A stretch of 64,000 bases of DNA from Escherichia phage vB_EcoM-RPN187: sequence record OL770074.2; one strand, 5' to 3'. Numbering within the stretch: the first letter of the stretch is position 1; each line of letters begins with the position of its first letter. The notes beneath the pieces are model-generated. The model saw only the letters and a program-made list of their open reading frames with translations, had not been told where the DNA came from and did not search any database. Of this stretch, positions 3,856 to 44,348 are shown in pieces. A program made the translations under genes and the position numbers.

Positions 3856-5544
3856 TTATGAAACAGTCATTACCGTAAATCGTCCAACTTTGCTCATCTG
3901 AAGATGCTGTCCATACCGTTGAGGGTCATGGTCTCGATGAGAGATAATGAACACATTAGTATTTTGTAAACTTCCAAGAATGGTATCTATAGCCTTAACA
4001 GCCTCAGAATCGACAGCGCCATCAAAAACCTCATCAAGAATCAGAGTGTTGATTTTAACACCAGAGACCTTTTCAGCAATATCTCGCCATGTAAACAACA
4101 ATGCGATATCGATACGTGCCTTTTCACCTTGACTAAATGAAGCATAACTAAAATCTTCACGACCACGTGATTTTATAGATTCATTGAATTCTTCGTCAAT
4201 AGAAAACACGTAATCAGCTTCCATGATTTTAAGATAATAGTTAATCTGCTTGTTGAACAGAGGCACATATTTTTTAATGATAGCACCTTTAATACCAGAA
4301 TCTTTTAACATATCTGTGATAATACCACGATGGTATTTTTCAAGAACGATATCCGATTTTGTTTTAATGATTTTATCAAGTTCTTTTTGAAGCAAAGCTA
4401 TCTCATCGGCATGGTCGATAAATTCCGCTGAGGCTTGTTCTATTGCAGCTTTAACTTTCTTAGCTTTATCAATAGTGGCAATCATTGCTTGTTTCTTGGT
4501 ACGAATATCAGATGCAAGGTCCTGTTTAGTCTTAACATTAGCTCTATATTCGTCCACTAGGACACTCAGATTATCTCTGTGACATGTAAGTTGCTCGAAT
4601 GAGTGATTACATTCGTGAAGCTTATCGGTAATCTTAGAGACAATAGGATCACCCTGGTGCAACTGTGATGCACAAGTAGGACATGTGCCGCCGTCATGAT
4701 ACATCTTAATAACTTTGTTATATGAGTCAATTTTAGATTTAATCAAGAATGCTTCTTGTCCTATCTTGTTGAATGCCTCAGTAGGGTCTTCATCAAGAAC
4801 GATATTAAGTAGTCGCTCATTAGCTTCTTCGATTTCTGCTTTTAATGAACGAGCTTCTTTGGCTAGGTCGTCATACATATTCTGTAGACGCGCTACATTA
4901 TCACCAGATAATTTCTTTTGACGTTCGATATTCTCGTTATAAATCTTAATTTGTTGGATAACACCATCTTTCTTGGCATCGAGAACTTGTCCCTGGGAAT
5001 TAAGTTCTCGAACTTGAGACTTATTGATTTTATCCATTTCAGCGAGTGTGCCGACTTCTAAAAGGTCTTCAACAAGTTTTCTGCGAGCAGGGGTGCTAAG
5101 AGCCATGAAAGGGGTATACCCTGCCGTCCCAAGCACAACGATTTGTTTAAAAGACGCGTATGACATTCCGATGCTACGTTCAAATTCTTCTTGGAAGTCA
5201 CGACTGCTGGCAGATTCATCAAGACGAACACCGTCAACGGAGATTTCGAAAATATTGGGCTTTTGGCCACGTTTAATGAAGTATTTTTTACCATCAAATT
5301 CCATCCAAAGCTCAACTAAGAGCTCTTTCTTGTTCGTGCTATTAATGATTTGCCCTTTCTTAACATCACGAAATGGTTTACCGAAAAGTCCAAAAGTAAT
5401 GGCTTCTAACATCGTAGATTTACCACCACCATTTTTACCAGTGATTAATGTCTTTTGGACTTTATCTAATTGGATGTCAATAGGATTCCCGCCTACCGAC
5501 ATGATGTTTTGATAACGAACACGATTTAATTTAAATGATTTCAT
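3856..5544 (-). CDS. 46: recombination endonuclease subunit gp46 (Rad50/SbcC-like)
   Basis: 562 aa, Walker A GKNGGGKST near N-terminus, long coiled-coil middle, CxxC hook (CPTC), C-terminal LILDEVFDG D-loop region. Confidence 0.9.
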   Translation of the reverse strand: MKSFKLNRVRYQNIMSVGGNPIDIQLDKVQKTLITGKNGGGKSTMLEAITFGLFGKPFRDVKKGQIINSTNKKELLVELWMEFDGKKYFIKRGQKPNIFEISVDGVRLDESASSRDFQEEFERSIGMSYASFKQIVVLGTAGYTPFMALSTPARRKLVEDLLEVGTLAEMDKINKSQVRELNSQGQVLDAKKDGVIQQIKIYNENIERQKKLSGDNVARLQNMYDDLAKEARSLKAEIEEANERLLNIVLDEDPTEAFNKIGQEAFLIKSKIDSYNKVIKMYHDGGTCPTCASQLHQGDPIVSKITDKLHECNHSFEQLTCHRDNLSVLVDEYRANVKTKQDLASDIRTKKQAMIATIDKAKKVKAAIEQASAEFIDHADEIALLQKELDKIIKTKSDIVLEKYHRGIITDMLKDSGIKGAIIKKYVPLFNKQINYYLKIMEADYVFSIDEEFNESIKSRGREDFSYASFSQGEKARIDIALLFTWRDIAEKVSGVKINTLILDEVFDGAVDSEAVKAIDTILGSLQNTNVFIISHRDHDPQRYGQHLQMSKVGRFTVMTVS

Positions 5545-25663: not shown

Positions 25664-25692
25664 AAAAAAGCCCCAACCGTAAGGAAGGGGCT
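25664..25692 (-). terminator. rho-independent terminator (GCCCC...GGGGC plus U6), copy 1
   Basis: Minus strand: GCCCCTTCCTTACGGTTGGGGCTTTTTT just after the rI stop; same element at 41024-41052, variant at 41570-41598. Confidence 0.6.
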
Positions 25693-25698
25693 AGTAAA

Positions 25699-26001
25699 TT
25701 AGATAGATGTAGGCTCTAATTTTATTTTCATGAACTCGGCAAATTGTCTGGCAGTTTTTATGCCTTGTTCATGACATTCAAATGCATCATCACAGGGGCT
25801 ATTTTTGTAATGCTTTACCATATACTTATAGAATTTTTCAGAATTCTCAACATTTTGAATTTCAAACAAAGTATATACGTTTTTAATCCCTGATTCCATA
25901 AAGTTATCAAAATATGGGTCGGTATACGCAGTACCAACGTTAGGAGTTGTTGCTGCAAAAAACCCCAGCATCGCCATTACAGCTATCGCTCTTAAGGCCA
26001 T
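25699..26001 (-). CDS. rI: lysis-inhibition antiholin RI
   Basis: Signal-anchor N-terminus then DPYFDNFMESGIKNVYTLFE...FYKYM...YKNSPC...FEC..., matching the pattern of recalled T4 RI; next to tk as in T4. Confidence 0.7.
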   Translation of the reverse strand: MALRAIAVMAMLGFFAATTPNVGTAYTDPYFDNFMESGIKNVYTLFEIQNVENSEKFYKYMVKHYKNSPCDDAFECHEQGIKTARQFAEFMKIKLEPTSI

Positions 26002-31498: not shown

Positions 31499-31801
31499 TT
31501 ATTTACCTTTAATTACTTTAGCTGCTTCGATAGCCGCTTGCTGAAGGTCATCCATCGACATACCGAATTTAGAAGCAAAGTTATCAATTTTCTTTTCGAC
31601 AGCATTCAAAGGCTTGGCCTGTTTACCTTCATTAGCGCCAGGAAGAGCGAGAATACGCTCTTTGTCAATATAAAGGCTTACAAGTTTCTTACGGTCTTTA
31701 TCGGACAAATCATGAAATGAATGGGCCTTTTTATTTATAGCGGCTTCTAATTTACCTGCACTCACTCGCGCTTCAGTAATAAATTCTTGATATGTTTTCA
31801 T
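31499..31801 (-). CDS. ipII: internal protein II (capsid-targeted, injected)
   Basis: 100 aa; capsid-targeting leader MKTYQEFITE then ARVSAGKLEAAINKK...; recalled T4 internal-protein family. ipII versus ipIII naming rests on length. Confidence 0.7.
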   Translation of the reverse strand: MKTYQEFITEARVSAGKLEAAINKKAHSFHDLSDKDRKKLVSLYIDKERILALPGANEGKQAKPLNAVEKKIDNFASKFGMSMDDLQQAAIEAAKVIKGK

Positions 31802-31842
31802 ATGTTTCCTTTAAATGTAAATAGGCCTAAATATAGGCCTTA

Positions 31843-32421
31843 TTAATTACCACGGGCTGCATTAGCAACGGCGTAAGCGTACTGAACATTAGCGTCTTTA
31901 AACGTACCTTTAGAGGTATCTAGTTCTGCCTTAAAGCCACCTTTAGCCATAACATCGGCAAATTCTTTACGGAAGGCCATTGCATCAAGACCTTTCCATG
32001 ATGATTTGTGCTTGGCGAATTCAAGACCAGCGTAGTTGACAGCCTTAGCTAATTTATTATCAATGACCCATTTACCGGCTTTAGGCACAAACACCGGGCC
32101 TTTCTGTTTAGAGAATAGTTTTAAATTCCAGCGACGAAGATCACTGTCGGCTTTAACAAAAGCTGCGTCTAAGTTACTAGCAACAACATCTTGAATATGG
32201 CCAAATTTAAGCCCATCAACTTCAATATTTAAATCGGTACGCCAGCGAAGTCCTTCCCAAGCGAAGGCTTTAAAATCAGAAGCTTTTGTGGCTAGATATC
32301 GTTCAAGTGGAGCAGTTTTAGGGTCAAAGCCGTTACCGCCACGATAAGTCCACTCGTCCTTATTAATGCCTTGAGCTTTTCCTGCAAAGGCCTCGGCGAT
32401 AAATTCTTTATATGTTTTCAT
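31843..32421 (-). CDS. ipIII: internal protein III (capsid-targeted, injected)
   Basis: 192 aa; leader MKTYKEFIAE; basic Lys/Ala-rich body. Confidence 0.65.
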   Translation of the reverse strand: MKTYKEFIAEAFAGKAQGINKDEWTYRGGNGFDPKTAPLERYLATKASDFKAFAWEGLRWRTDLNIEVDGLKFGHIQDVVASNLDAAFVKADSDLRRWNLKLFSKQKGPVFVPKAGKWVIDNKLAKAVNYAGLEFAKHKSSWKGLDAMAFRKEFADVMAKGGFKAELDTSKGTFKDANVQYAYAVANAARGN

Positions 32422-32484
32422 TTTTGTTTCCTTGTTTGTTTTGATAGAGTAATTATACCATATTAATACTTAAGCGTAAACTGT

Positions 32485-32745
32485 TTAAGCTTTACCGCCG
32501 GAAATAATTCCGAAGTTGTTAAAATCGTATCCAATATCGTCAACATCTACTTTAGGACTTGTAGCAACATAAGCAATTTCACTACGTTTTGCATAGGTGT
32601 TGATTTCTTTACCATCGCCACCTAAGAAAAAATACCCATTACGTTTTAATGAGCCAAAGTCTTCCGCATCACCAATGAAAGCTTTAACTTTAAATTTAGG
32701 ACCTTTGGCATCTGCTTCAGCGATAAATTCTTGATACATTTTCAT
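32485..32745 (-). CDS. capsid-targeting-leader protein (86 aa), unassigned internal-protein candidate
   Basis: N-terminus MKMYQEFIAE-A shares the IP leader and the I-x-E site. Confidence 0.5.
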   Translation of the reverse strand: MKMYQEFIAEADAKGPKFKVKAFIGDAEDFGSLKRNGYFFLGGDGKEINTYAKRSEIAYVATSPKVDVDDIGYDFNNFGIISGGKA

Positions 32746-32751
32746 TTTTCC

Positions 32752-33165
32752 TTAGTAAATTGATTTACCATAGTATTTGTACCAAGTAGGACGTTGAGCA
32801 ATTTTTTCATCTAAGCGTGCTTGACTTATCGCAATGGACGCTTCGGACGGGACATAATTATTACGAAATTCGGCAGGGATGTCGGAAATATCCTGGACAG
32901 TCGTGTCCTTGATTTTGAAACCACGTTTCAAGCATTCAGCGATTAGCTCGATTTGTCGTAAACGTAAAAATTCGAGTTTGTCGTAAAAGAATGTTACGTG
33001 GCCGGTGCCTAAGATAAATGTTGGAGAGATTTTAAAATCCCTTACACGTTTACCGTTTTGAACATGTTTACGGACTGCACTAAATACACGTGGTAATTCA
33101 CGATACTCAGCCATAAGATGTTGGTCGGTCAGTTCAGAAACAAGTGTTAAATTGATACGAGTCAT
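32752..33165 (-). CDS. denV: endonuclease V (pyrimidine-dimer DNA glycosylase) DenV
   Basis: [35 protein letters not shown]...[23 protein letters not shown], near-identical to recalled T4 DenV; ATG at 33163-33165. Confidence 0.9.
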
Positions 33166-33192
33166 AATTTCCTCCAAGTAGTTGATGAATGT

Positions 33193-33222
33193 ATAATATC
33201 AAAACCCTTGGAGGAAGTAAAC
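33193..33222 (-). promoter_or_regulatory. early promoter GTTTAC-N18-TATTAT upstream of denV
   Basis: Minus strand: GTTTACTTCCTCCAAGGGTTTTGATATTATAC. Confidence 0.5.
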
Positions 33223-33223
33223 A

Positions 33224-33505
33224 CTATTTTTCTGAAGCGCCTGAAATATATTTTTCAAGACGTTGTTTCATTAGCGAGCCGTTCTTAGCGATTTCTTCCG
33301 GTTTATCGCACATACGCAACAAGGCTTCAAGCTTAACGATATCGCTGGTACGTTCAAATTTGCGAGTATCTATCTTACTAGCAAGTTCAGAAATACGTGC
33401 TAATAGACTTTCAGCTTCAACCAAAGCTGCGCCTAGCTTAGTTGCAAATGTGTCAGTAGCTTCGTTAAGAATAGATTCTGATAAAAATTCACTATATGTT
33501 TTCAT
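33224..33505 (-). CDS. capsid-targeting-leader protein (93 aa), unassigned internal-protein candidate
   Basis: ATG at 33503-33505 gives [11 protein letters not shown]...; start overlaps the lysozyme stop (ATGA). Confidence 0.5.
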
Positions 33506-33990: not shown

Positions 33991-34024
33991 AATACCTCCC
34001 ACGTTTATAGGAGGTATTTATTAC

Positions 34025-40431: not shown

Positions 40432-40935
40432 TCATTTATTTTTAATTTTGCAAATTTTTTCTGCTTCAGCAATTGCAGCGTCAATGATGCTTTGTGCAAT
40501 TTTATTACTAGTTGACCTGGCAATCACACTAAGAACAATTTCTTTTTCTTCACCACCCCAACCCCAAGTCCTTTGTTCGTGGGTACCTTTAACTACAGCT
40601 GAAACTTCAACAGAACGTCCACCATCAGAAGTTTTAACATCTACAACCCAATCACCATCTTTCTCTTCTACCCTTGATTTATCCCAAGAAATACTAATAT
40701 ATGATTCGTTGTCAATAGAAGTCGCCGGGTTTTTCTCTACCGTAAGACCTTCACTTTCCAGCCATTCAATAGTATTTGCGCATAAATCGGAGGAACACCT
40801 CATCGGGAACCGGCAAGATTTTTCACCTTTAGATGCGGCGTTATACATCTTTTCTAAAATACGCTTTTGCACGTTTTTAAAAATAGTTTCAGCAGATTCT
40901 TCAGATTTTTTATTCAGTTCAGTATAAAGACTCAT
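40432..40935 (-). CDS. hypothetical protein (167 aa)
   Basis: Coding-strand ORF with its own promoter at 40964-40992. Confidence 0.45.
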   Translation of the reverse strand: MSLYTELNKKSEESAETIFKNVQKRILEKMYNAASKGEKSCRFPMRCSSDLCANTIEWLESEGLTVEKNPATSIDNESYISISWDKSRVEEKDGDWVVDVKTSDGGRSVEVSAVVKGTHEQRTWGWGGEEKEIVLSVIARSTSNKIAQSIIDAAIAEAEKICKIKNK

Positions 40936-40963
40936 AACATTTTCCTATGTTGTTGATAAGTCT

Positions 40964-40992
40964 ATAGTATCATGTCCTTAGAAGAAGTAAAC
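40964..40992 (-). promoter_or_regulatory. early promoter GTTTAC-N17-TACTAT
   Basis: Minus strand: GTTTACTTCTTCTAAGGACATGATACTATAGAC. Confidence 0.5.
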
Positions 40993-41023
40993 ATCTTTAT
41001 GAAATATTTTTATGCCCTAGATA

Positions 41024-41052
41024 CCAAAAAGCCCCAACCGTAAGGAAGGGGC
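41024..41052 (-). terminator. rho-independent terminator, copy 2 of the GCCCC...GGGGC-U6 element
   Basis: Same string as 25664-25692, just after the stop at 41059. Confidence 0.6.
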
Positions 41053-41058
41053 ATTCTA

Positions 41059-41523
41059 TTATTTAATTTGTTTAGCAGACCAGATACGGTCTTTAATAAG
41101 TTTTTGGATATCTTCAACATACTCAAGGCTATGAGCGTGAGGATTATCTTTGAAGCTATGTGCTCGTGCCAGTTTCTGGCCTTCTGTTTTGATTACTAAA
41201 AGCTCTTTAAGAATTGCTTCATACTTAGAAATAATTCCTTTGGCGATATTTTTTTCTTGAGCGGCTTTAGGGTCCGCTTTTGGCGCAGGTGCTTTACCTG
41301 TAGCTTTCTGGAACAATTCACCTGATGCAGCTAGGCTTTTAAAAACTCGGCTAACAGTATTAGCATTAGTAAAACCTTCGGCTTTAAAATCTCTAATAAA
41401 ACGGAAACGTTCTTCATCAGAGGCGTCTTTGTAAGAATATTTACCTGCTCTAATTGCTGCAATCGCAGCGGCTTTTACATCTGAACTAGATTGTTCAGTC
41501 AAAAATTCAGCGTATGATTTCAT
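41059..41523 (-). CDS. capsid-targeting-leader protein (154 aa), unassigned internal-protein candidate
   Basis: N-terminus MKSYAEFLTE-Q with the L-x-E site; Ala/Lys-rich body; isolated between two terminators. Confidence 0.5.
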   Translation of the reverse strand: MKSYAEFLTEQSSSDVKAAAIAAIRAGKYSYKDASDEERFRFIRDFKAEGFTNANTVSRVFKSLAASGELFQKATGKAPAPKADPKAAQEKNIAKGIISKYEAILKELLVIKTEGQKLARAHSFKDNPHAHSLEYVEDIQKLIKDRIWSAKQIK

Positions 41524-41569
41524 GTTGCTTTTCCTAAGTTAATTAACTTATCTATTTATTATTATGCAA

Positions 41570-41598
41570 AAAAGCCCCAACCTTTCGGAAGGGGCTAT
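41570..41598 (-). terminator. rho-independent terminator, variant copy (end of the tRNA/stable-RNA unit)
   Basis: Minus strand: GCCCCTTCCGAAAGGTTGGGGCTTTTTT. Confidence 0.55.
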
Positions 41599-41644
41599 GC
41601 CTTGCGGCAACCTTGTCGGGGTTCCACCTGCTAAGGCAAGTGTT

Positions 41645-41795
41645 TGTACGAAACGCCGGGATTCGAACCCGGTTATTAAGCAGTTGACGCTACTCAATAT
41701 TTTTAAAAGGCCATATCTCGACCATATCCGAACGTTCCGTCAAAAACGCTACTCGGCTTACGGCAAAGATATTTCCTCGAATCGATAATTCTGTG
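41645..41795 (-). ncRNA. candidate tRNA-like stable RNA (about 140 nt), analogous in place to T4 RNA species C/D
   Basis: No ORF; minus strand carries a perfect T-arm CCGGG-TTCGAAT-CCCGG followed by CGTTTCG, which can pair with GAAACG about 140 nt upstream; lies between tRNA-Arg and a terminator. Confidence 0.3.
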
Positions 41796-41907
41796 CGCCG
41801 TTTCAGCTGTGATAGTAAAGAACCAGAACACAGTAAAACTGTGGGAGGAACTATACTCCAGGGAACATCAGTCCGACGACTTACCGGTAGCGACCCGGTT
41901 TCTTGTT

Positions 41908-41983
41908 TGGTCGAGGCAGTAGGGGTCGAACCTACGACCTAGGACTTAGAAGGTCCTTGCTCTTCCTTCTGAGCTATGCCTCG
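41908..41983 (-). tRNA. tRNA-Arg (anticodon UCU)
   Basis: Hand-folded cloverleaf: acceptor CGAGGCA/TGCCTCG, D-arm GCTC/GAGC, anticodon loop CUUCUAA, T-arm GTAGG-TTCGACC-CCTAC, encoded CCA. Confidence 0.8.
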
Positions 41984-41987
41984 GATT

Positions 41988-42062
41988 TGGCGGACATGCA
42001 TGGATTCGAACCATGGACCAATTGATTAACAGTCAACTGCTCTACCACTGAGCTACACATCC
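41988..42062 (-). tRNA. tRNA-Asn (anticodon GUU)
   Basis: Acceptor GGATGTG/CATGTCC (two G-U pairs), D-arm GCTC/GAGC, anticodon stem GTTGA/TCAAT with loop CUGUUAA, T-arm CATGG-TTCGAAT-CCATG, CCA. Confidence 0.7.
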
Positions 42063-42066
42063 AAAT

Positions 42067-42153
42067 TGGTTGGGAGTGATGGAGTCGAACCACCTGAGTC
42101 GCAATGACAATGGATTTACAGTCCACACCGCTACCTCTACGGGATAACTCCCC
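42067..42153 (-). tRNA. tRNA-Tyr (anticodon GUA), class II with long variable arm
   Basis: Anticodon loop CUGUAAA; T-arm GGTGG-TTCGACT-CCATC; CCA encoded; the acceptor stem pairs only with a mismatch or bulge, so the 5' boundary is uncertain. Confidence 0.55.
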
Positions 42154-42162
42154 AAATTAATT

Positions 42163-42237
42163 TGGTGGCCCTGGGTGGAATTGAACCACCATCTGGCGAT
42201 TATGAGTCGCTTGCTTGAACCTTCCAGCTACAGGGCC
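42163..42237 (-). tRNA. tRNA with anticodon CAU (Met or lysidine-type Ile)
   Basis: Acceptor GGCCCTG/CAGGGCC, anticodon loop CUCAUAA, T-arm GGTGG-TTCAATT-CCACC, CCA; occupies the T4 tRNA-Ile position. Confidence 0.7.
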
Positions 42238-42238
42238 T

Positions 42239-42314
42239 TGGTGCTGATTGACGGAATCGAACCACCGACCTTCTCATTACAAGTGAGTTGCTCTACCTAC
42301 TGAACTAAATCAGC
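42239..42314 (-). tRNA. tRNA-Thr (anticodon UGU)
   Basis: Acceptor GCTGATT/AATCAGC, D-arm GTTC/GAGC, anticodon loop CUUGUAA, CCA encoded. Confidence 0.75.
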
Positions 42315-42319
42315 AAAAC

Positions 42320-42410
42320 TGGCGGAGGCGATAGGATTTGAACCTATGAGTCGCCGGAGCGACTGCCGGTTTTCAAGACCGGTGCATTAAACCACTCTGC
42401 CACGCCTCCA
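42320..42410 (-). tRNA. tRNA-Ser (anticodon UGA), class II
   Basis: Acceptor GGAGGCG/CGCCTCC, anticodon stem CCGGT/ACCGG with loop CUUGAAA, long variable arm, 91 nt. Confidence 0.8.
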
Positions 42411-42411
42411 G

Positions 42412-42485
42412 TCTCCATACAAGGATTTGAACCTTGGACCTCCTGATCCCAAATCAGGCGCTCTACCAAACTGAGCTACACGGAG
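42412..42485 (-). tRNA. tRNA-Pro (anticodon UGG), CCA not encoded
   Basis: Acceptor CTCCGTG/TATGGAG, D-arm GCTC/GAGC, anticodon stem CCTGA/TCAGG with loop UUUGGGA, T-arm CAAGG-TTCAAAT-CCTTG; one nucleotide separates it from tRNA-Ser. Confidence 0.75.
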
Positions 42486-42495
42486 TAAATTAAAT

Positions 42496-42569
<74 letters not shown>

Positions 42570-42574
42570 AAATT

Positions 42575-42661
42575 TGGTGCGAGAAGTGGGACTCGAACCC
42601 ACAAGGAAATCATTCCGCAGCATTTTAAGTGCTGTGCCTTTACCAATTTGACCATTCTCGC
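42575..42661 (-). tRNA. tRNA-Leu (anticodon UAA), class II
   Basis: Acceptor GCGAGAA/TTCTCGC, anticodon stem CAGCA/TGCTG with loop CUUAAAA, variable arm GGAA-TGAT-TTCC, T-arm GTGGG-TTCGAGT-CCCAC, CCA. Confidence 0.8.
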
Positions 42662-42662
42662 G

Positions 42663-42735
42663 CTGGGAATAAAGGACTCGAACCTTTGCATCCTGGAATC
42701 AAAATCCAGTGCCTTACCAACTTGGCTAATTCCCA
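42663..42735 (-). tRNA. tRNA-Gln (anticodon UUG), CCA not encoded
   Basis: Acceptor TGGGAAT/ATTCCCA, D-arm GCC/GGC, anticodon stem CTGGA/TCCAG with loop UUUUGAU, T-arm AAAGG-TTCGAGT-CCTTT; one nucleotide from tRNA-Leu. Confidence 0.75.
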
Positions 42736-42799
42736 ATTATTAACAAAGGCTCTCAAGCAAGAACCCTTGATGATAGAGGGTATTAATCAGTGCGATATG

Positions 42800-42832
42800 A
42801 GTTAATAATAACAAATAATTCTTAAAGCATAT
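42800..42832 (-). promoter_or_regulatory. candidate MotA-dependent middle promoter upstream of the tRNA cluster
   Basis: Minus strand: aTGCTTTAAgaattatttgtTATTAT (MotA-box-like TGCTTTA, 12 nt, then TAnnnT). Confidence 0.4.
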
Positions 42833-43748: not shown

Positions 43749-44021
43749 TCATTTTAAATAAATTGCGTATTTTTTATAGCCACCAGGCTCGTGTCGAAGA
43801 CCCTTATCATTAGCAAAACGCTCAATGTTGTTAATTTGATTCTGGTCAAGTTCAGAGATGTCAAACACGAAATAGTTACGTTTGTTACCAACTGTTACAT
43901 AGTCAGTTAAATCAATACCATATAGGTAATTGATGTCAGCAATCATAGTCTTGACAGCTTTGCTAATTTTTACTTTTTCGTTAAAAGTAGCTTCATTGAT
44001 AAATTCTTTAAATGTTTTCAT
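43749..44021 (-). CDS. capsid-targeting-leader protein (90 aa), ipI-locus internal-protein candidate
   Basis: N-terminus MKTFKEFINE-A; own promoter at 44053-44082. Confidence 0.5.
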   Translation of the reverse strand: MKTFKEFINEATFNEKVKISKAVKTMIADINYLYGIDLTDYVTVGNKRNYFVFDISELDQNQINNIERFANDKGLRHEPGGYKKYAIYLK

Positions 44022-44052
44022 TTTATTTTCTTAATTAATTTTGATAGGACCT

Positions 44053-44082
44053 ACTATAACATAGTCCTATCAACATGTAAAC
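44053..44082 (-). promoter_or_regulatory. early promoter GTTTAC-N17-TTATAGT with hairpin GATAGGAC/GTCCTATC
   Basis: Minus strand: GTTTACATGTTGATAGGACTATGTTATAGTAGGTCCTATC. Confidence 0.55.
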
Positions 44083-44084
44083 TA

Positions 44085-44348
44085 TTAAATACCTGCTTCG
44101 CGCTTAACATAAGCAACATAAGCTTCGATAGCTTTCTTGCTGGTAATTTTTACCTGACCGCGTCCGTTGCCTTCTTTAGAGTTTTTCTTAACAACTACAT
44201 TACCATCTTTAACACCCCATACATGGACATAAGTACCGATGTTTCGGTCGTAGAACATTGCATGGTCGTTGTTGTAAGAGAATGATTCGTAGTTCTCTGT
44301 CAGAGTAGAAGATTGAGATTCAGCGATAAATTCTTTATACGTTTTCAT
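44085..44348 (-). CDS. capsid-targeting-leader protein (87 aa), ipI-locus internal-protein candidate
   Basis: N-terminus MKTYKEFIAE-S; sits just upstream of 57B where T4 carries ipI. Confidence 0.5.
   Translation of the reverse strand: MKTYKEFIAESQSSTLTENYESFSYNNDHAMFYDRNIGTYVHVWGVKDGNVVVKKNSKEGNGRGQVKITSKKAIEAYVAYVKREAGI

Follow-up and report, generated by a model that had tools for sequence, protein, structure and literature searches.

The gene examined here, termed cassette A, lies on the minus strand of a 64,000-nucleotide stretch of Escherichia phage vB_EcoM-RPN187 DNA (sequence record OL770074.2), the whole of which is called the window. Cassette A probably encodes a T-even internal protein that is packaged into the phage head and processed at its N-terminal leader. 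In related phages the site that it occupies, directly after the rnaC stable-RNA gene, is found in four states: empty, with cassette A, with a different cassette B, or with both (A+B). Every cargo at the site carries a leader, and the joints are hairpins. Because these four states occur at one site, it is, by genome comparison, a third polymorphic internal-protein locus, the cassette of which is missing in T4.

Leader and internal-protein character

The window is Mosigvirus (RB69-like) DNA. Positions 40900-41700 are 100% identical to Escherichia phages AV112 and AV113 and 96-99% identical to many further Mosigvirus genomes, and in all Mosigvirus genomes matching this segment the open reading frame (ORF) of cassette A is annotated as "hypothetical protein". 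The ORF starts with the ATG at 41523, five codons downstream of an in-frame stop. The cassette comprises the following features:

41059..41523, minus strand: coding sequence of cassette A, candidate precursor of an internal (head-packaged) protein, 154 amino acids (aa), MKSYAEFLTEQ...
41494..41523, minus strand: capsid-targeting-sequence-like propeptide MKSYAEFLTE, codons 1-10, with predicted gp21 cleavage after E10 (L8-T9-E10)
41532..41535, minus strand: Shine-Dalgarno AGGA, 8 nt before the ATG, read from the sequence
41553..41560, minus strand: octamer AATAAATA resembling a late promoter; its end lies 29 nt before the ATG
41568..41595, minus strand: upstream hairpin, GCCCCUUCC-GAAA-GGUUGGGGC followed by U6
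41026..41052, minus strand: downstream hairpin, GCCCCUUCC-UUAC-GGUUGGGGC followed by U5

Mutagenesis of T4 IPIII assigned targeting to residues 4 and 7 and processing to residues 8 and 10 of the leader (summarised in PMC9026906). MKSYAEFLTE holds all four of these determinants (Y4, F7, L8 and E10). It matches the targeting-sequence consensus of T4-type internal proteins, M-K-x-[Y/F]-x-E-F-[I/L]-x-E, and contains the [L/I]-x-E protease motif at residues 8-10 as L8-T9-E10. For comparison, the T4 leaders read MKTYQEFIAE (IPII and IPIII) and MKTFKEF (IPI). The aromatic residue at position 4, the hydrophobic residue at position 7, L8 and E10 are kept in nearly all family members, even at ~36% identity, as in MKFKEFLAE, MITFNDILVE and MINFSDFLNE, and the pattern extends over Escherichia, Klebsiella, Yersinia and Serratia T4-like phages. 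Divergent leaders that keep it include MKFKEFLAE, MITFNDILVE, MLNFNELLSE, MINFSDFLNE and MKSFSSFLNE. Since the pattern persists in relatives whose leader sequences differ, selection appears to act on the leader peptide; judged from these alignments, the conservation is a peptide signal and not DNA identity. The Tequatrovirus leaders have two tandem sites, MKSYAQFLNE-AVLNE; the protein reads AVLNEASSTEIQAVAK from A11 and ASSTEIQAVAK from A16.

The leader is rare in the window. A six-frame scan of the 64 kb found it in only seven ORFs; as all seven lie on the minus strand and all carry the match at the N-terminus, the motif is not a chance occurrence. Three of the seven have PHROG "internal head protein" matches. 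Cassette A is the seventh, at a site apart from the two loci that hold the others:

31499-33505, minus strand: ipII/ipIII-type locus, four leader ORFs (33505-33224, 32745-32485, 32421-31843 and 31801-31499)
43749-44348, minus strand: ipI-type locus, two leader ORFs (44348-44085 and 44021-43749)

Within the first of these loci, 32421-31843 is the IPIII ortholog and 31801-31499 the IPII ortholog, and the leader ORFs of 86 aa (32485-32745) and 93 aa (33224-33505) match PHROG "internal head protein" families. In the second, the 87-aa leader ORF at 44348..44085 (MKTYKEFIAE...) matches only PHROGs of unknown function and is "hypothetical" in AV112.

After removal of the first ten residues, the predicted mature protein is ~16 kDa, with an isoelectric point (pI) of 9.70, 16.0% Ala and 13.9% Lys. 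T4 IPII has a pI of 9.56, 16.7% Ala and 15.6% Lys, and T4 IPIII a pI of 9.65, 14.2% Ala and 13.7% Lys. Cassette A has three properties of internal proteins: its product is small and basic, its Bas37 ortholog is non-essential, and it is polymorphic among T-even relatives. A preliminary description of this DNA had proposed an ORF starting MKSYAEFLTEQ with an internal-protein-like leader and an Ala/Lys-rich body. The ORF is present, on the minus strand and 154 aa long; its composition lies near that of T4 IPII and IPIII, and the leader likeness, seen at sequence level, proves to be family-wide.

One site with four states

The third locus is best seen by comparing the junction across genomes. In fD1, RB68 and fPS-2, a ~36-nt repeat, cttaGCCCCGACC[G/A]AAAGGTTGGGGCTTTTTggtat, occurs twice, 559 bp apart and with 0-1 mismatch, and a late promoter and the gene lie between the two copies. 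The cassette unit (promoter, gene and terminator) is 559 bp in Tequatrovirus and 543 bp here. T4 and PST have one copy of the repeat; on its left stands the rnaC trailer, and on its right ctaggcctttcc..., the sequence that follows the second copy in the filled phages. The empty site of T4 and PST is thus the filled site minus one repeat copy and the gene, that is, a precise indel. Cassette A is absent from T4, T2 and PST, and tblastn found no remnant of the gene in T4 or PST. A megablast search with the T4 junction gave single-piece matches in T4, T2, Sf24 and others, and two-piece matches in filled phages (~886 nt vs 331). By rough counts, 511 records hold the protein vs ~680-711 that hold the junction.

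In Klebsiella T4-like phages the gene stands at the same place, and its flanking terminators are not repeats of each other. Because the gene occupies the same place in these phages, the more economical reading of the sequences is that the ancestor had the gene and that the T4, T2 and PST lineages lost it by recombination between the repeats. Insertion by the reverse reaction is a possible alternative.

RB69 carries a different gene at the same site, after the same hairpin and AATAAATA. This gene, cassette B (ORF149c/148c), is found in 165 phage records at at least 95% identity; in Bas37 and PhAPEC2, cassettes A and B stand in tandem. Two copies of cassette B were located as follows:

2029-2592 of locus L010 (Bas37/KarlGJung, MZ501089), minus strand: cassette B of Bas37 (bas37_0243), 187 aa, MKTYAEFLTE...
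4429-4991 of locus L011 (RB69), minus strand: cassette B of RB69, annotated as split into ORF149c and ORF148c

The proteins of both cassettes match phrog_2280 over their full length, with E about 1e-53 each. Homology between A and B was rejected: BLASTP and hhalign find only the 10-residue leader in common. By these alignments phrog_2280 appears to be a lump of two unrelated families joined by the leader.

The preliminary description had taken the gene for a self-contained module that adds one more candidate to the internal proteins, at a third locus, to be examined by comparing the junction across T-even genomes. That comparison gives an empty site in T4 and PST, A in RB68, fD1 and fPS-2, B in RB69, and both in Bas37. 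The proposal is supported by comparative genomics together with one proteomic data set on an ortholog.

Flanking terminators

The upstream hairpin terminates the tRNA/rnaC unit, and the downstream hairpin terminates the cassette; they are also the left and the right copy, respectively, of the direct repeat around the cassette. No other direct repeat occurs in 40900-41700; this one measures 32 nt at 84% identity, with 543 nt between its copies. The 9-nt arms of the hairpins are identical, their loops differ, and their tails are U5 (downstream) vs U6 (upstream). The gene had been described as bracketed by two identical terminators; the two copies are there, and it is the stems that are the same, not the loops (UUAC and GAAA) or the U-tracts.

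Folding energies are -16.3 and -17.7 kcal/mol, with z about -3. By sequence, each hairpin is a GC-rich stem-loop with a U-tract at the end of a transcription unit, as in intrinsic terminators, and both flanking terminators of the fPS-2 ortholog were marked by independent annotators. A homologous hairpin occupies the position of the upstream one in T4, PST, RB68, fD1, fPS-2, Bas37 and RB69. Rfam searches of 40900-42800 returned tRNAs only and no family for the hairpins.

The hairpin pattern occurs three times in the window vs 0.00-0.01 expected. The third copy lies outside the cassette:

25665..25691, minus strand: third hairpin copy, the same as the 41026 copy including the UUAC loop, followed by GTTTAC...TATAGT

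This copy stands directly after the ORF 26001..25699, near the thymidine kinase gene, and resembles a promoter-early stem-loop (PeSL) joint. All three window copies carry a TTCC stem variant with a 2x2 mismatch, whereas the Tequatrovirus copies (GACC) pair perfectly; the shared variant suggests conversion among copies. A simple terminator scanner missed the hairpins because of this 2x2 internal mismatch.

Promoter and predicted expression

The canonical late promoter TATAAATA directly follows the hairpin U-tract in RB68, fD1, fPS-2, Bas37 and Klebsiella phage RCIP0032. It stands at the matching place in orthologous loci of three genera. The window has AATAAATA instead, with motif-to-ATG distances of 24-32 nt, as at canonical sites; the octamer may be a regular late-promoter variant in this Mosigvirus. 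At the lysozyme gene e (ORF start 33990), the late promoter at ~34015-34022 on the minus strand likewise reads AATAAATA here vs TATAAATA in T4, and the second TATAAATA that T4 has upstream of e is degraded to TATAAACG in the window.

A promoter scan of the interval between the hairpin and the ATG found no sigma-70-like or T4-early (GTTTAC) promoter, and such a promoter is present before most other leader genes of the window. The GCTT in the hairpin tail was considered as a MotA box (middle promoter) and discarded on visual inspection, as no TAnnnT stands at the right spacing. The predicted expression is therefore late-only and monocistronic, insulated by terminators on either side. Late-only expression would fit a prohead component.

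Conservation and predicted structure

Searches with tblastn found a match to the cassette A protein in 511 phage records, among them ~70 at at least 95% identity (Mosigvirus), ~400 at ~74% identity (Tequatrovirus: RB32ORF133c, RB68_138, wV7, AR1 and others) and ~40 from Klebsiella T4-like phages. In these three groups the gene is conserved in its place after the tRNA/stable-RNA unit. More distant members occur in Yersinia (fHe-Yen9-01 and MHG19) and Serratia (PS2) phages. The ratio of nonsynonymous to synonymous substitution rates (dN/dS) against Tequatrovirus orthologs is 0.06-0.09, with dN 0.13 and dS saturated, evidence that the gene is real and subject to strong purifying selection. Over the last 62 residues, amino acid identity to the Tequatrovirus orthologs is 94-95% (dN/dS ~0.03). 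The N-domain is common across genera, with 56-60% identity to the Klebsiella phage versions; for the C-domain, two or more types exist in the family. Several phages have copies that are frameshifted or truncated (proteins P0006, P0007, P0008, P0009, P0042 and P0073), at 93-119 aa, and at 78 aa in KpV477. On the evidence of these copies, the gene is decaying in some lineages.

The family is tiny and phage-restricted. An exhaustive profile search found only 10 representatives in 1.84 billion proteins and so no distant annotated relatives. The protein matches phrog_2280, the function label of which is "unknown". One database entry only (Klebsiella phage KPKp, UniRef) bears the label "Internal head protein", and the others are "hypothetical". 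Pfam gave sub-threshold noise only (MerR_1, E = 0.064, under the cut-off), NCBIfam gave no match to the protein, and a sequence profile search of PDB gave spurious low-complexity matches only. T4 IPII and IPIII were rejected as homologs of the mature protein, their BLASTP similarity being leader-driven and the hhalign probability 13%. The "IpIV" of PST was rejected as well; it has the same length as the Tequatrovirus ortholog (157 aa), but its sequence is unrelated.

An AlphaFold2 model from a 13-sequence alignment (predicted local distance difference test score 78) is all-helical. It has a disordered leader, a three-helix N-domain (residues 13-67), a Pro/Ala/Lys linker (~73-92) and a long antiparallel helical hairpin (85-151). 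The single internal [LI]-x-E site, L105-K-E, falls within a predicted helix. Foldseek found nothing in PDB at E <= 0.001 and only family members in BFVD.

Published experimental data on orthologs

Table S3 of PMC8309999 gives the label "PPAP" to g140, the ortholog of phage fD1, which has 157 aa and 80% identity across aligned columns. This label denotes identification in purified virions using liquid chromatography coupled to tandem mass spectrometry under a strict rule that requires no fewer than 2 peptides and a spectral count averaging 2 or more. The search was fully tryptic. The neighbours g139 and g138 went undetected in the same virion preparation (PMC8309999). Virion proteomics, to which the preliminary description had looked, has thus detected an ortholog with the particles, in a preparation that contained 113 of 277 phage proteins and 672 host proteins. 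The fPS-2/65/90 paper contains no proteomics.

Transposon data are available for Bas37 from a HIDEN-SEQ screen, given in a preprint (10.1101/2025.11.20.689424). On E. coli K-12 the screen disrupted 29 of the 34 TA sites in the cassette A ortholog bas37_0244, which is non-essential there. The cassette B gene bas37_0243 was scored "Essential", with 1 of 48 TA sites hit. The score is surprising, as the gene resembles those of internal proteins and is missing from many relatives; the preprint does not discuss it. The same source identifies another leader-bearing protein, Bas37_0260, as an inhibitor of McrBC. IPIII is needed on ECOR17 (Srikant et al.).

Proposed pathway and rival explanations

The reading held to be probable, that cassette A encodes a head-packaged, leader-processed internal protein, starts from what is established: the reality of the gene, the conservation of its leader, the late-promoter motif, the position, the indel, the detection of one ortholog in a virion preparation and the dispensability of another. 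From these a pathway can be proposed. The gene would have its own late transcription, from a promoter immediately after the rnaC terminator. The MKSYAEFLTE sequence would dock the precursor onto the prohead scaffolding core, and the gp21 prohead protease would cut after Glu10 (L8-T9-E10). The resulting basic ~16 kDa, all-helical, two-domain protein would stay in the head with the DNA, leave the head together with it at infection, and might then have a DNA-associated or anti-defence accessory role. Any specific role after injection is held with much less confidence than packaging and processing. At the DNA level, homologous recombination between the hairpin repeats would remove or install the cassette, which would explain the four states of the site.

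Several points weigh against this reading. Across all family members, N-terminal processing and injection are inferred only. The variant P0002 has FLMTE, which shifts the L-x-E spacing. AATAAATA, a late promoter by sequence, is one base off the canonical one. Between genera the C-domain retains 95% amino acid identity although dS is saturated; the anti-restriction internal proteins, in contrast, are hypervariable. The searches of Pfam, NCBIfam, PDB and BFVD gave no fold or sequence match pointing to an activity. The breadth of the fD1 preparation, with its 113 of 277 phage and 672 host proteins, makes the virion association unspecific (PMC8309999). In one host comparison, bas37_0244 had no fitness effect (log2 fold change -0.11, q = 1), and the HIDEN-SEQ authors do not highlight it (10.1101/2025.11.20.689424).

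It is unlikely that the product is a late cytoplasmic accessory protein that stays unpackaged, with the leader shared with internal-protein genes because the first codons and the region of translation initiation are a frequent recombination joint, and the fD1 detection due to carry-over of an abundant late protein. The fD1 preparation was indeed rich in non-structural phage proteins as well as the 672 host proteins, and the A and B leaders are near-identical (MKSYAEFLTE and MKTYAEFLTE) despite unrelated bodies, as if leader DNA travelled with the joint. However, the leader pattern is kept at the amino acid level where the sequences differ, as in the first four of the divergent leaders listed above (MKFKEFLAE to MINFSDFLNE). 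Moreover, g140 was over the strict threshold while g139 and g138 were undetected in the same preparation, and late-only expression would fit a prohead component. A prohead component could also be a scaffold-associated part of the prohead core that gets in by way of its leader, acts in head assembly and is then degraded or expelled like the gp67 and gp68 fragments, or else stays and condenses DNA, in neither case an injected effector. This is given an equally low probability: T4, T2 and PST lack the gene, which is dispensable, frameshifted copies occur in otherwise intact phages, and where core proteins are cleaved at multiple places this protein has a single internal [LI]-x-E site (L105-K-E).

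As for the joints, the hairpins might be two ordinary terminators alike by convergence, and presence or absence of the gene the outcome of unrelated illegitimate deletions. GC-rich tetraloop hairpins are common in T4-type genomes, and in the Klebsiella phages the two terminators around the gene do not repeat one another. Convergence is nevertheless highly improbable. In fD1, RB68 and fPS-2 the repeat extends past the stem to ~36 nt with 0-1 mismatch; in T4 and PST, what stands to the left of the upstream copy meets what stands to the right of the downstream copy at a point exactly inside the repeat; and the Mosigvirus copies share the pairing-weakening TTCC variant, which points to common descent or conversion.

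A bolder extension of the internal-protein reading is put forward only tentatively. In it, the rnaC-e.8 junction would be an undescribed third locus at which late-promoter cassettes, their leader-bearing cargoes unrelated, are swapped through recombination at the terminator hairpin. The cargo of cassette A would be a conserved two-domain effector with a novel fold, injected together with the DNA and directed against a host function.

Surrounding genes

The genes upstream of the cassette are as follows:

41647..41785, minus strand: homolog of rnaC (species 1 stable RNA), 98.6% identity to T4 rnaC over 139/139 nt
41793..41903, minus strand: homolog of rnaD (species 2 stable RNA), blastn match to T4 rnaD in two pieces at 92-96% identity
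41908-42735, minus strand: ten tRNAs, upstream of the rnaD and rnaC homologs

The rnaC homolog is the last gene of the tRNA/stable-RNA unit, and the position of cassette A directly downstream of that unit, as first described, is confirmed by the ten tRNAs and the rnaD and rnaC homologs found upstream of it. The ten-tRNA set is a Tequatrovirus-like array; RB69 and SA79RD have two only (Arg and Met). Between the genera this region is a mosaic, and in T4, RB68, fPS-2 and Bas37 it contains SegB-type homing endonuclease genes.

Downstream of the cassette, the next gene (40432-40935, minus strand, 167 aa) has its own promoter:

40964..40992, minus strand: T4-early-type promoter of the next gene (40935..40432), GTTTAC, 17-nt spacer, TACTAT, read from the sequence

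Residues 1-92 of its product match phrog_18312 and residues 86-167 match phrog_8232; the gene may be a fusion or a replacement at the joint. At the same position Mosigvirus SA79RD has only a 306-nt ORF, and e.8 is absent.

Significance and comparison with known systems

Host defences encounter the injected internal proteins before any other phage product; GmrSD is blocked by IPI, and McrBC by Bas37_0260. Each newly recognised internal protein is thus a candidate anti-defence factor and a candidate host-range determinant for therapeutic T4-like phages. Recognising cassettes A and B extends the internal-protein repertoire to a third locus, where A is "hypothetical" in essentially all ~500 records. 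If the tentative extension were true, a new anti-defence or takeover effector would be carried by ~500 sequenced phages. The site is also a clear case, taken from nature, of a cassette gained and lost through terminator repeats, beside a SegB-marked tRNA region, and the unit of leader, late promoter and terminator is a natural design for packaging foreign proteins into T4-type heads.

T4 IPII and IPIII are capsid-targeted, processed by gp21 and present at ~360 copies per head. Cassette A is like them in the key residues of its leader (MKSYAEFLTE vs MKTYQEFIAE), in being small, basic and Ala/Lys-rich (pI 9.6-9.7, ~14-17% Ala and 14-16% Lys), and in laboratory dispensability, judged for cassette A from its Bas37 ortholog. 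Unlike them, it has no detectable homology beyond the leader, its C-domain is strongly conserved, its locus follows rnaC (theirs lies between denV and e), and its only promoter is of late type, with no early or middle promoter. T4 IPI and Bas37_0260 carry the leader, are injected and inhibit type IV restriction (GmrSD and McrBC); they share with cassette A the leader logic and a polymorphic, cassette-like gene that differs between close relatives. They are shorter, at 78-95 aa vs 154 aa, without sequence or fold similarity to it, and in one host comparison its ortholog bas37_0244 was without effect.

Modules of T4-type genomes are shuffled by way of promoter-early stem-loops (Arbiol 2010, Comeau 2014, PMC4122927), and their PST/T4 consensus is TTTACW...TAYWAT (PMC4122927). 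In a PeSL the stem-loop directly precedes a sigma-70-like early promoter, a Shine-Dalgarno sequence and a start codon. At cassette A, as at PeSLs, a lone accessory gene is bordered by a short, conserved joint of stem-loop and promoter, and a precise indel between close relatives leaves one joint. The downstream joint (the 41026-41052 hairpin with GTTTAC-N17-TACTAT at 40964-40992) fits the PeSL definition and consensus. The upstream joint, in contrast, has the late octamer in place of a sigma-70-like early promoter and so falls outside that definition, and the recombining repeat at cassette A is essentially the terminator itself.

A further counterpart is cassette B (RB69ORF149c/bas37_0243), which has the same site, the same hairpin and AATAAATA, a near-identical leader (MKTYAEFLTE) and the same phrog_2280 assignment. 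Cassette A differs in its mature part, which is unrelated to the 187-aa product of B, and in being non-essential, whereas B was scored "Essential" in the Bas37 screen. The concept of internal proteins is already well established, and cassette A adds one more probable internal protein to it, not a new kind of system.

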